From Eledone cirrhosa (taxonomy: Eukaryota): a stretch of DNA of 64,000 bases. Of the stretch, positions 22,601-25,600 are shown one piece after another; position 1 is the first letter of the stretch, and each line of letters begins with the position of its first letter. Below the pieces are notes generated by a model that saw only the letters and a list, made by a program, of their open reading frames with translations, ran no database searches and was not told where the DNA came from. The stretch is taken from the NCBI GenBank assembly GCA_964016885.1, contig OZ024751.1:23188001-23252000 (forward strand). Direction: 5' to 3'. The position numbers and the translations under genes are program-made.

Positions 22601-25600
22601 GCCTCCAACAGGCCGCGAGGTCTGCGCCTCCAACAGGCCGCGAGGTCTGCGCTTCCGCCAGGCCGCGAGCTCTGCGCTTCCGCCAGGCCGCGAGGTCTGC
22701 GCCTCCGCCAGGCCGCGAGCTCTGCGCCTCCAACAGGCCGCGAGGTCTGCGCCTCCAACAAGTCGCGAACTCTGCGGCTCCACTAGGCCACAAACTCTAC
22801 GGCTCCAGTGTAAATAGGAATAGATATAACATTCTACATCTGCGAATTTTGTCTATTAGTGTAAACCACCTGAGAAATGAAAACAAAATCCTCCCCACAC
22901 ACACATCTCTCTCTCTCTCTCTCTCTCTCTCTCTCTCTCTCTCTCTCTATATATATATATATATATAACACACACACACACACATGTATATATAATAATG
23001 TATTATGCCCGAGGCAGCCAACTTCTTCAACGTTGTTTGAGAGCCACTCTTAAAATATAAAATCTAAGAATGAAAATTTCCAGATTTTATTCTTTGTATG
23101 TACACCTCCTACTATCCACACATAAATATGTATGTATATATATATATACTTTCACTATCATATATATATATATGTATATATATATATATATATATATATA
23201 TATATATATATATATATATATATAGAGAGAGAGAGAGAGAGAGAGATATGTGTGTGTGTATATATATATGTATATATATATATATATATAATATATATGT
23301 ATAATATATGTAATATATATATATGTATAATATACATACACACACACACACATATATATATATATATATATATATATATATATATATATATATATATATA
23401 TATATATATATATATATATATACGATAAAGAGAGTAAGTGGGGGGGGGGGGGAAGTATGGAAGCTAAAATGAATGGAATTGAAAATAAGATTTATATTTT
23501 ACCTAAAGAAAGTTTTTTTAAGTCAGAAACTGAATATGGTCTTCAAAAATTTATGTATTCTATCACCAGATTTAGGTGCAGAAAAGCTTACGCAATGAGA
23601 TTCCACTATATATCACATATAAAATTCGTACAATAATGCTTTTGAATTATAAAGTCCTGATGCAAAAAGATAAATAATCTAGCGTTTCAAATTATTACGT
23701 ACATATATGTGTAGATACATATATAAGCAGTTACCTGCATATTCATATTATGTTTCCTATATATCTGCTGTATGTCTTAATATATAATTCATAATACAGA
23801 GTGCAGTTGAAACTTCACTATCACTAGTACTTATCATTCGGACAAATAAAGCTGCTTATCTCTGAAAAACTGAGATGGGGCAAAAGAAGAAAATATATGC
23901 ATATATATATATATATATATATATATATATATATATATATATATATATATATATTAGAAAGTGAGGTTTTTTTTACAAAATGAAAAATAACCGAGGTGTC
24001 CTACACGAGTGAAAGTATAAAGAAAAAGAGATGAAATCGAAAATGCAACTGGAGTCTTATTTTTTTTACCGGTTTCGCAGTTCTTCTGCTTTTGCAGAAG
24101 AACTGCGAAACCGGTAAAGGAACCAAATAAATATATATATTTAAAAAAAAAATAAGACTCCAGTTGCATTTTCGATTTCATCTCTTTTTCTTTATATATA
24201 TATATATATATATATATATATATATATATATAGTGAGAGAGAGAGAGAGAGAGAGAGAGAGAGAGAGAGAGAGAGAGAGAGAGAGAGAGAGAGAGAGAGA
24301 GAGAGAGAGAGAGAGAGAGAAAGATGAAGTTGGAAATAGCACGGGAGTTATGTTTAAGGGTGTTTTTCTTTGTTGATTCGTCAAAGTGACATTATTGAAA
24401 AGATAGTGTTATAAAAAAGATAGTGTTACTAAAAAAAGAGGGACAATTCTTTTTTGAAAGTTTTTTTATGGAGTATATAAAGTGTATGGAAAAATTACCG
24501 GTTTCGATAACATGGATTTTAATACATCGAAACCGGTAATTTTTCCATACACTTTATATACTCCATAAAAAAATGTTCAAAAAAGAAGTGTCCCTCTTTT
24601 TTTTAATAACACTATCTTTTTTATAATGTCACTTTGACGAATCAAAAAGGAAAAAAAGAACCTTAAACATATCTCCCGTGCTATTTCAAACTTCATCTTT
24701 TCTCTATACCCACTGTTTTGTATAGAACCTCACTTCTCTTTTCTAATATATATATATATATAAATATATATATATATATATATATATATATATATATATA
24801 TATATATATATATAAAGGTGCCATCAATCTATCGCTGCTTGAATCTCAATATATATATATATCTAGCTGTCGAAACGGCCGGAGCTTAGCCGTCGGGGTT
24901 CTGACTCTTTTCCCATATATATATATATATGTATGTATATATATATATATATGCATATATATATATATATATATATATATATATATATATATATATATAT
25001 ATATAAACACAAAACGGAGGGCGAGAAATTAGAAATCGCTTAAACTGAAATGATTTTAACTGAGCATCGAAACCAAGATATGGCGTACTTGGATTGCAGA
25101 AAATGTACTTATAATGTATTGCCTGCATTGTAAAGTTCGCTATGAAACAATTGCAACTCTGAAATATCTGCCCCACACCCATACACACTTAAAAAAAAAG
25201 ATACTGTGATAAACTTCAACAGAGGAAATAAATTAATATCAACGATACATTATTGGTGAAATCCGTTTTACTGCTATAAAAATATGATAAAGTTTCAATG
25301 AATATTTCATGTTTTATACGAACTATTATTTAAATAACATTTTCATTTATGAAATTCTAATTTGACGACTGTTTATGGATATGGGTTATTTTAAAAACGA
25401 CTCATATTTTTTGTTAGTTTCATCATAATTGTATTAAAGACTATCACAAAATCCTTGTAATTAGATTTCCTATCCAGCTTCGTTTGCATTAATAAACATA
25501 TCCCTACGCTCAAAATTAAGAGAAAATTATACAGATTATATATTGTGTCATTACGCGAATTAATCAATAATTATATTAAAATTGTTTATTTTCATGACAA

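Follow-up and report, generated by a model that had tools for sequence, protein, structure and literature searches.

Inverted, likely Penelope-like inserts in a 64-kb window of Eledone cirrhosa DNA turn in most cases inside the 5' part of a hammerhead ribozyme motif

Two adjacent inverted inserts beside (TA)n tracts

The window, that is, the whole 64-kb stretch analysed here, is animal DNA of approximately 33% GC that is rich in (TA)n and contains cadherin exons and one LINE fragment bearing a reverse transcriptase (RT). Cadherin-repeat exons were seen at 1412-1723, 4124-4504, 19621-20217, and 21935-22297 (minus), two of them confirmed by Pfam, and LINE fragments at 58380-60240 and 8610-9180. 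Pfam searches of four ORFs of the window returned cadherins and one RVT_1 match at 59.4-60 kb. The inserts described below appear to be located in or beside a cadherin gene.

Two adjacent inverted inserts, A and B, lie between 23955 and 24745. The (TA)n tract to the left of insert A (23901-23954, no strand assigned), its putative target, is followed by a one-sided 3' tail of 61 nt (23955-24015, minus) with the terminus ACCTCACTTTCTAA, and by the tailed (long) arm (24016-24089, minus), which has GAAA at 24076, a palindromic stem III, and a GTA cleavage triplet. A 4-nt apex (24090-24093), which on the plus strand probably belongs to the natural stem II loop, leads to the tailless (short) arm (24094-24196, plus; GAAA at 24107), which terminates at an internal TATA merging into (TA)n. 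The arms are identical at 74/74 aligned bases, GAAA stands 13 nt downstream of the arm starts, and the right arm carries an additional 29 nt (approximately 24116-24144) without counterpart in the left arm. A (GA)43 array (24235-24320) separates (TA)n from the tailless end of insert B. The tailless (short) arm of B (24314-24508, minus; GAAA at 24505) contains a 16-nt duplication near 24419-24434 and is separated by a 17-nt spacer (24509-24525, plus) from the tailed (long) arm (24526-24705, plus; GAAA at 24529, stem III, and the GTA triplet), after which come a one-sided 3' tail of 40 nt (24706-24745, plus) and (TA)n. Here the arms differ by 8-12 substitutions, depending on the alignment, and GAAA lies 3 nt downstream of the start of the mirrored part.

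In both inserts, the outward reading from the apex passes GAAACCGGTA, one arm runs into a tail that ends at (TA)n, and the other arm ends at an internal site. A motif search found no CTGANGA within either insert. The original prediction had described two adjacent inverted repeats whose arms start just upstream of GAAA and lack CTGANGA, and this description was confirmed, as was the statement that both end in related ..TCTAA-(TA)n termini: related ACCTCACTT..TCTAA termini adjoin (TA)n at 23955 (minus) and 24745 (plus). The sequence GAAACCGGT[A/C] occurs six times in the window (0.12 expected from base composition), and all occurrences fall within A, B, and the palindrome at 61719-62123, that is, in three inserts that are each counted twice. 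This third insert, F (61.7-62.1 kb), can be aligned with A and B around GAAA and around the tailless end.

The claim that A and B turn in stem II was right for these two inserts. From 24512 onwards, the spacer of B is family sequence, namely the 5' strand of stem II and the loop. Six listed family pieces start matching at 24512 or 24513, indicating that the spacer is mostly natural stem II and loop belonging to the tailed arm; 24509-24511 match nothing among the family pieces listed. The TTTT apex of A lies inside a 10-mer whose only other occurrence is the stem II loop of F (61986), an insert with a whole ribozyme, and insert A fits a clean snap-back in that loop. In this interpretation the 10-mer belongs to the tailless arm; alternatively, the apex would lie at the border between the core and stem II. 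In both B and F, an ATG stands at the start of stem II.

Further inverted inserts with hammerhead motifs

Insert F (61684-62123), the relative of A and B, has arms identical at 198/198 positions, a whole hammerhead motif of the U3-A8 type in both of them, and (CT)37 at its tailless end. Hammerhead positions are numbered here according to general usage. The variant core of F reads TTGANAA and its stem I has 2 bp, so that a search for CTGANGA misses motifs of the F type. GAAA, a short palindromic stem III, and an NUH triplet are present in A, B, and F; the 5' core and stem I are missing in A and B and present in F, as a variant, and in the G and J families. Insert G1 (21520-21727) has a whole CTGATGA hammerhead in both arms, a mirrored part that begins 8 nt before the core, and (CT)35 at its tailless end; in G2 (29252-29462), of the same family, the mirrored part begins 5 nt before the core. 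Insert L (10125-10650), annotated by hand, carries a hammerhead-like motif with one core change and a long stem II in both arms, and its mirrored part begins 8 nt before the core.

Four inserts, D2, G3, J, and K1, hold sequence on the tailless arm that is absent from the tailed arm. The tailed arm of G3 (29606-29773) begins at GAAA, and the tailless arm has stem I, CTGATGA, and stem II as well. The tailed arm of J (52287-52640) begins at the 5' base of stem II, and the tailless arm continues through CTGATGA into more upstream family sequence. In both cases, the CTGATGA confined to the tailless arm was confirmed as family sequence by other family copies. Long upstream stretches on the tailless arm only are found in D2 (21298-21482), where the tailed arm is barely more than a tail, lacks a whole ribozyme half, and leaves the ribozyme 3' half to the tailless arm alone, and in K1 (35084-35430), where the tailed arm begins 17 nt upstream of GAAA and the tailless arm extends far upstream; a ribozyme core was looked for in K1 and none was found. 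The stretches 35188-35412 and 38157-38381 are 98.7% identical and have the same inversion junction, reflecting either local duplication or a re-mobilised fold-back.

According to the original prediction, the geometry of A and B recurs at three further sites. The palindromes there (16655-16819, 18651-18737, and 62302-62432) are real, and their mirrored parts begin 12, 0, and 21 nt away from GAAA, but they belong to families other than that of A and B, and at 18694 stem II is absent from both arms. They correspond to inserts C (16600-16819; 13-nt spacer), D1 (18651-18764; apex directly at GAAA), and E (62225-62432), the last of the D1/D2 family. Counter-examples with a whole ribozyme motif in both arms, at 61719-62123, 21593-21719, 29252-29397, and 10287-10650, had been omitted.

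A strict ribozyme descriptor returned only the motif at 18078 and one weak match, compared with 0-2 per shuffle, and the other motifs are hand annotations. No hammerhead was found by Rfam at E<=1 among the 150 of 251 rows listed, which held only miRNA-type hairpin matches below the gathering score. Minimum free energy folding did not recover hammerhead folds in six non-palindromic segments (z -2.75 to +0.74), as expected for weak motifs, and was not used as support. The type I hammerhead at 18070-18160 is complete, its stem II being long and its stem III 3 bp in length; it lies outside any palindrome and between two copies of a local duplication (approximately 17566-17760 and 18240-18450). A local duplication contains two complete J-family hammerhead motifs with CTGATGA (36930-37030 and 37704-37810), the latter with an inverted 3' piece at 37564-37615, and an additional CTGATGA, accompanied by GAAA and a long hairpin that resembles stem II, lies at the window end (63900-63960, minus).

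In 10/13 inversions, the tailless end is an internal TA-rich site that merges into (TA)n. In B, G1, and F, which represent two unrelated families, (CT)35-43 stands between an internal TCTCT and (TA)n; these arrays (24235-24320, 21717-21786, and 62119-62192) make up three of the six CT/GA arrays of at least 15 units in the window. Possible origins are telomerase-like repeat addition at the start site (candidate UCUCUAUA), priming on an existing (GA)n, and later expansion.

Distribution of inversion points

We counted 13 ribozyme-bearing inversions from nine families in the window. Palindrome M (2984-3353), which is tailed and has 183-nt arms identical at 178/183 positions, was excluded because its core was not recognisable. 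Hairpins at 14407, 30103, and 33896, an inverted repeat pair at 46.7 kb, a structure at 57417, and microsatellite palindromes were dropped before counting. The three hairpins (14407-14495, 30103-30168, and 33896-33983) form a family of their own, short and with arms of 26-38 nt and A-rich loops, unrelated to the ribozyme-bearing inserts.

In eight events, the mirrored part started in the stem II zone, at 13 (A), 3 (B), 12 (C), 0 (D1), 21 (E), 1 (G3), 28 (J), and 17 nt (K1) upstream of GAAA. In G1, G2, and L it started 27, 24, and 92 nt upstream of GAAA, respectively, which places it at the end of stem I, 5-8 nt ahead of the core. The start in F lies 76 nt upstream of GAAA, beyond the motif, and that in D2 approximately 35 nt downstream. 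The ribozyme 5' half thus holds the start in 11/13 events versus 3.8-4.6 expected from arm-length permutation, a count reached by 0 of 50,000-200,000 permutations (constant-hazard null, p=0.00009-0.0015). Stem II holds it in 8/13 events versus 2.7-3.9 expected (permutation p=0.0006-0.006; constant-hazard null, p<=0.022 with wider assumed zones and palindrome M as a miss). With palindrome M included in this way, the counts become 11/14 for the 5' half and 8/14 for stem II, and taking one event per family gives 8/9 for the 5' half (p=0.002). Among the seven events with a mapped 5' half, the start falls in the 5' half in 6/7 (p=0.006) and in stem II in 3/7 (p=0.19). All these figures derive from a single window and from hand annotation, with zones set after the data were seen and with zone widths assumed for five events and estimated for K1.

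The apexes are therefore not uniform along the element in this window and are tied to the ribozyme. The junction bias is significant here and wider than stem II; stem II specifically, as originally proposed, was not supported as the site, given the 3/7 of mapped events and the three events that start 5-8 nt before the core. An arm start at the cleavage site was seen in 0 of 13 events, and run-off at that site was rejected for this reason.

Reads matching the family of insert B

Beyond the counts from the 64-kb window, one read comparison was made, on insert B. It drew on four runs (at most three samples, two studies) with 770, 843, 501, and 505 records, and from these numbers the family of B is multi-copy. 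Arm differences were compared over 40 listed rows of 130. At 8/9 of the differences with family data, the letter of one arm is held by at most 9% of the family depth, with four rare letters on each arm; the ninth difference stands at 9-12% of the family depth. The arms also have four minority family letters in common, at 19 to approximately 145 nt from the apex, and this sharing near and far from the apex points to a single template variant as origin. Both palindromes are aged genomic DNA, and the arms of B decayed separately after insertion, with private changes on both sides. An assembly or library artefact, or a later DNA fold-back independent of retrotransposition, would suit the identical arms of F and G2. 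It would also suit the apex of B, for which no spanning read or contig is among those listed, where a filter drops part of the records and the assembly may itself derive from the contig runs. With post-insertion decay written into both arms of B, and with one-sided tails and fixed tailless ends recurring in nine families, such an origin is highly improbable.

An estimated 54-57% of the ribozyme depth in the family of B extends to 24512, in the 5' strand of stem II; the estimate comes from two runs of one sample and thus implies at least two copies. Three listed pieces extend 37-214 letters further upstream with no fold-back joint listed. The sole other inversion joint listed, 24459>24547 on one contig, is downstream of the ribozyme, and in the apex-side bin of the left arm the depth amounts to 3% of that in the GAAA bin, read depth being a poor measure that mixes related families. 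Junctions like that of B are not the rule in its family. The first 48 columns of the arms of B (24526-24573) contain 0 substitutions, compared with 12 further out (p=0.02), a possible sign of homogenisation near the apex; as evidence, this was set aside because the p value is too weak.

Kind of element

Insertions of Penelope-like elements (PLEs) are marked by head-to-head copies, a one-sided tail, a (TA)n target, and a minimal hammerhead, according to PMC8557442, PMC3846280, and PMC4209133. The inserts show the head-to-head geometry of inverted 5'-truncated copies and insertion into (TA)n, with one-sided 3' tails of 40 nt in B, approximately 35 nt in F, 61 nt in A, and greater length in the others. 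Any target-site duplication would be masked by the repeat of the target. The PLE-type origin that had been proposed is supported by this geometry, the tail, the target, and the hammerhead. No ORF with RT and GIY-YIG domains was found in the inserts, and these families have been linked to no PLE ORF. The lack of an ORF makes autonomous PLEs less likely and does not lower the chance that the inserts were moved by a PLE. They are likely short non-autonomous or extremely truncated Penelope-like copies, and we infer the link to a PLE enzyme. A stop-broken stretch at 35860-36110, adjoining (TA)n, resembles by eye the end of a GIY-YIG domain.

A MITE or foldback DNA transposon was rejected, as there are no symmetric terminal inverted repeats and one end is tailed while the other stops at an internal site. 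Non-LTR retrozymes, as described in PMC7229834 and bioRxiv 10.64898/2026.07.22.740005, are likewise non-coding, related to PLEs, and equipped with a type I hammerhead, but they form head-to-tail tandem units, whereas the elements here are inverted single inserts. This class was rejected as well, since the self-matches of the window contain no head-to-tail tandem units, apart from a hint in the spacer of J. There (52386-52450 and 52590-52625), approximately 20 nt on the upstream side of the ribozyme resemble the tail of J itself and have the sense direction, which hints at a template in tandem or circular form.

The insertion unit of endonuclease-bearing (EN+) PLEs (Arkhipova et al. 2013, PMC3846280; Craig et al. 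2021, PMC8557442) comprises an inverted 5'-truncated copy with a tail of 30-40 nt. It shares with the present inserts the head-to-head inversion, the tail at one end, the (TA)n target, and the junction palindrome; the inserts differ in having no ORF, a length of 110-530 nt, and tails of approximately 35-165 nt. PLE hammerheads (PMC4209133) resemble those found here in their short palindromic stem III, their U3-A8 core variant, and the occurrence of motif pairs 100-700 bp apart on opposite strands. In A and B, unlike in those hammerheads, the 5' core is removed by the junction, and the accessible part of PMC4209133 contains no mapping of inversion points. The PAc Poseidon element studied in vitro (Frangieh et al. 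2024, PMC11167929) has, as here, two tail-delimiting start sites and an AT-rich target, with both strands extended and the RNA uncleaved. The joining of inverted products is not accounted for in the accessible part of that paper, and the PAc start site has no homology to the cut DNA, whereas the tailless ends here share TAT(A) with the target. In PAc, too, stem II opens with an ATG (PMC11167929), as in B and F; this may be mere nucleotide conservation.

Origin of the junctions

Each insert may represent two cDNAs that were primed on opposite target strands and whose 3' ends were joined mostly within the hammerhead 5' half. We give this reading about an even chance and consider it more probable than either a stalled single cDNA that snaps back or run-off at a template end. 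L1 twin priming likewise primes two cDNAs on opposite target strands and joins them by microhomology; the inverted segments of L1 are adjacent parts of the RNA, whereas the arms here duplicate the same RNA part. A PLE protein has been reported to nick and extend both target strands, with two tail-delimiting start sites and uncleaved RNA, a result obtained in vitro and in a different clade (PMC11167929). The first cDNA would start at the tail end and the second at the internal TAT(A) site. Both would be antisense and could pair only at self-complementary RNA stretches or after a snap-back of a few bases. Ribozyme helices and loops would supply such pairings, as the stem II loop might have done in A and B, and fill-in synthesis would then fix the palindrome. 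The ribozyme would act as a preferred joining zone, neither as a roadblock nor by cleavage.

The exclusive sequence on the tailless arms of D2, G3, J, and K1 could not be made by a tail-end cDNA folding back, and a cDNA from the internal site could not make the tail. Related copies have their tailless end at one and the same internal site, and two copies without tail or inversion (24910 and 52805) also end there, so that the tailless end behaves like a point of initiation. Short self-complementary stretches occur at the junctions of G3 and D2. Joining of two cDNAs accounts better for A, B, G3, and D2 than for G1, G2, L, and F, for which run-off at an RNA end is possible. Helix pairing is not a direct explanation for G1, G2, and L, which keep the whole motif in both arms, and the starts of F and of the tailed arm of D2 lie outside the 5' half. 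Plain snap-back without filler would do for A and E, and the other inversion joint and the shallow apex-side bin in the family of B also speak against joining of two cDNAs.

The original prediction had a single cDNA stop at the stem II hairpin, snap back, and copy itself, with stem II fixing the apex. Insert A has the exact form expected of a snap-back in the stem II loop, and B is 5 nt away from a perfect one; C and E could be long natural stems, and two uninverted copies of the D family also stop 8-11 nt upstream of GAAA. Self-priming has been proposed for PLE junction palindromes (PMC3846280), and the eight starts in the stem II zone exceed expectation, although among mapped events they do not. 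A hairpin stall as the cause is poorly supported: stem II of B has a stability of 0.0 kcal/mol, and the stems of F (-3.7 kcal/mol) and L (-13.9 kcal/mol) are crossed by both arms. The uninverted motifs at 18078 (-14.1 kcal/mol) and 36937 (-9.1 kcal/mol) are whole, and in the family of B more than half of the estimated ribozyme depth reaches 24512 and pieces continue upstream. The tail together with tailless-arm-only sequence in D2, G3, J, and K1 is impossible from a single cDNA, so that the claim that one snap-back builds the whole insert fails for these four, and the explanation as a whole is unlikely. Also unlikely, though slightly less so, is the possibility that source RNAs started at or just before the ribozyme, owing to a start site, a splice site, or an already truncated source copy, and that cDNAs ran off this 5' end and were joined there, with RNA structure incidental. 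Four arms in two families start 5-8 nt before the core, 5/5 copies of the D family that reach GAAA have no matched 5' half, and the junction of K1 is common to the 98.7% identical copy at 38157-38381; in D. virilis, the 5' end of helix I coincides with an intron end (PMC4209133). However, J, K1, and F extend from 55 to more than 80 nt upstream of GAAA, pieces of the B family continue upstream, and starts in the G family vary by up to 26 nt between arms and copies.

Pairing of two RNAs through a palindromic stem III as a dimeric hammerhead, such that two reverse transcriptases meet at the ribozyme, is very unlikely. A palindromic stem III, or a palindromic stem III loop, occurs in A, B, F, D/E, K, and L; dimeric folding has been suggested for motifs of this type (PMC4209133), and the PLE protein is a predicted dimer (PMC11167929). 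Yet both arms cross stem III before stopping, the minority letters shared by the arms of B are equally explained by one RNA, and Naiads are described as making inverted copies without canonical ribozymes (PMC8557442). Taken together with joining of two cDNAs, the PLE hammerhead could be a joining device, kept for integration and not for cleavage, whose folded RNA, perhaps dimerised by its palindromic stem III, sets the point where cDNAs stop and join, while the same enzyme stutters in a telomerase-like manner and writes the (GA)35-43 arrays; as one combined proposition, this is speculative and distinctly unlikely.

Relation to published work

The structure of the inserts has been described before and belongs to an ordinary kind of repeat; we have not found the ribozyme-linked junction bias in print. 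Junction palindromes and self-priming of PLEs are already published (PMC3846280), in a 2013 paper whose accessible part mentions neither hammerhead nor ribozyme and does not relate the junction to a ribozyme. No mapping of PLE inversion points to the ribozyme was found in the accessible literature, including PMC13282606, PMC6431247, and PMC9977147; supplements to this literature may hold junction maps. Craig et al. 2021 (PMC8557442) name both the function of the EN+ PLE ribozyme and the origin of the inverted structure as open. If true, a junction bias towards the 5' half combined with two cDNAs would link the two questions. With 14 inversions in 64 kb, the inserts further supply this genome densely with long DNA palindromes and may supply compound microsatellites as well.

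A metagenome scan with the mirrored 10-mer gave 120 loci, two of them with long arms, and (TA)4 in none of the 40 listed, and was uninformative; viral contigs gave 0 matches to the motif of the G family. The prokaryotic-looking metagenome contig L050 (1-1040) contains a perfect palindrome with arms of at least 300 bp, which is probably an assembly or amplification fold-back.
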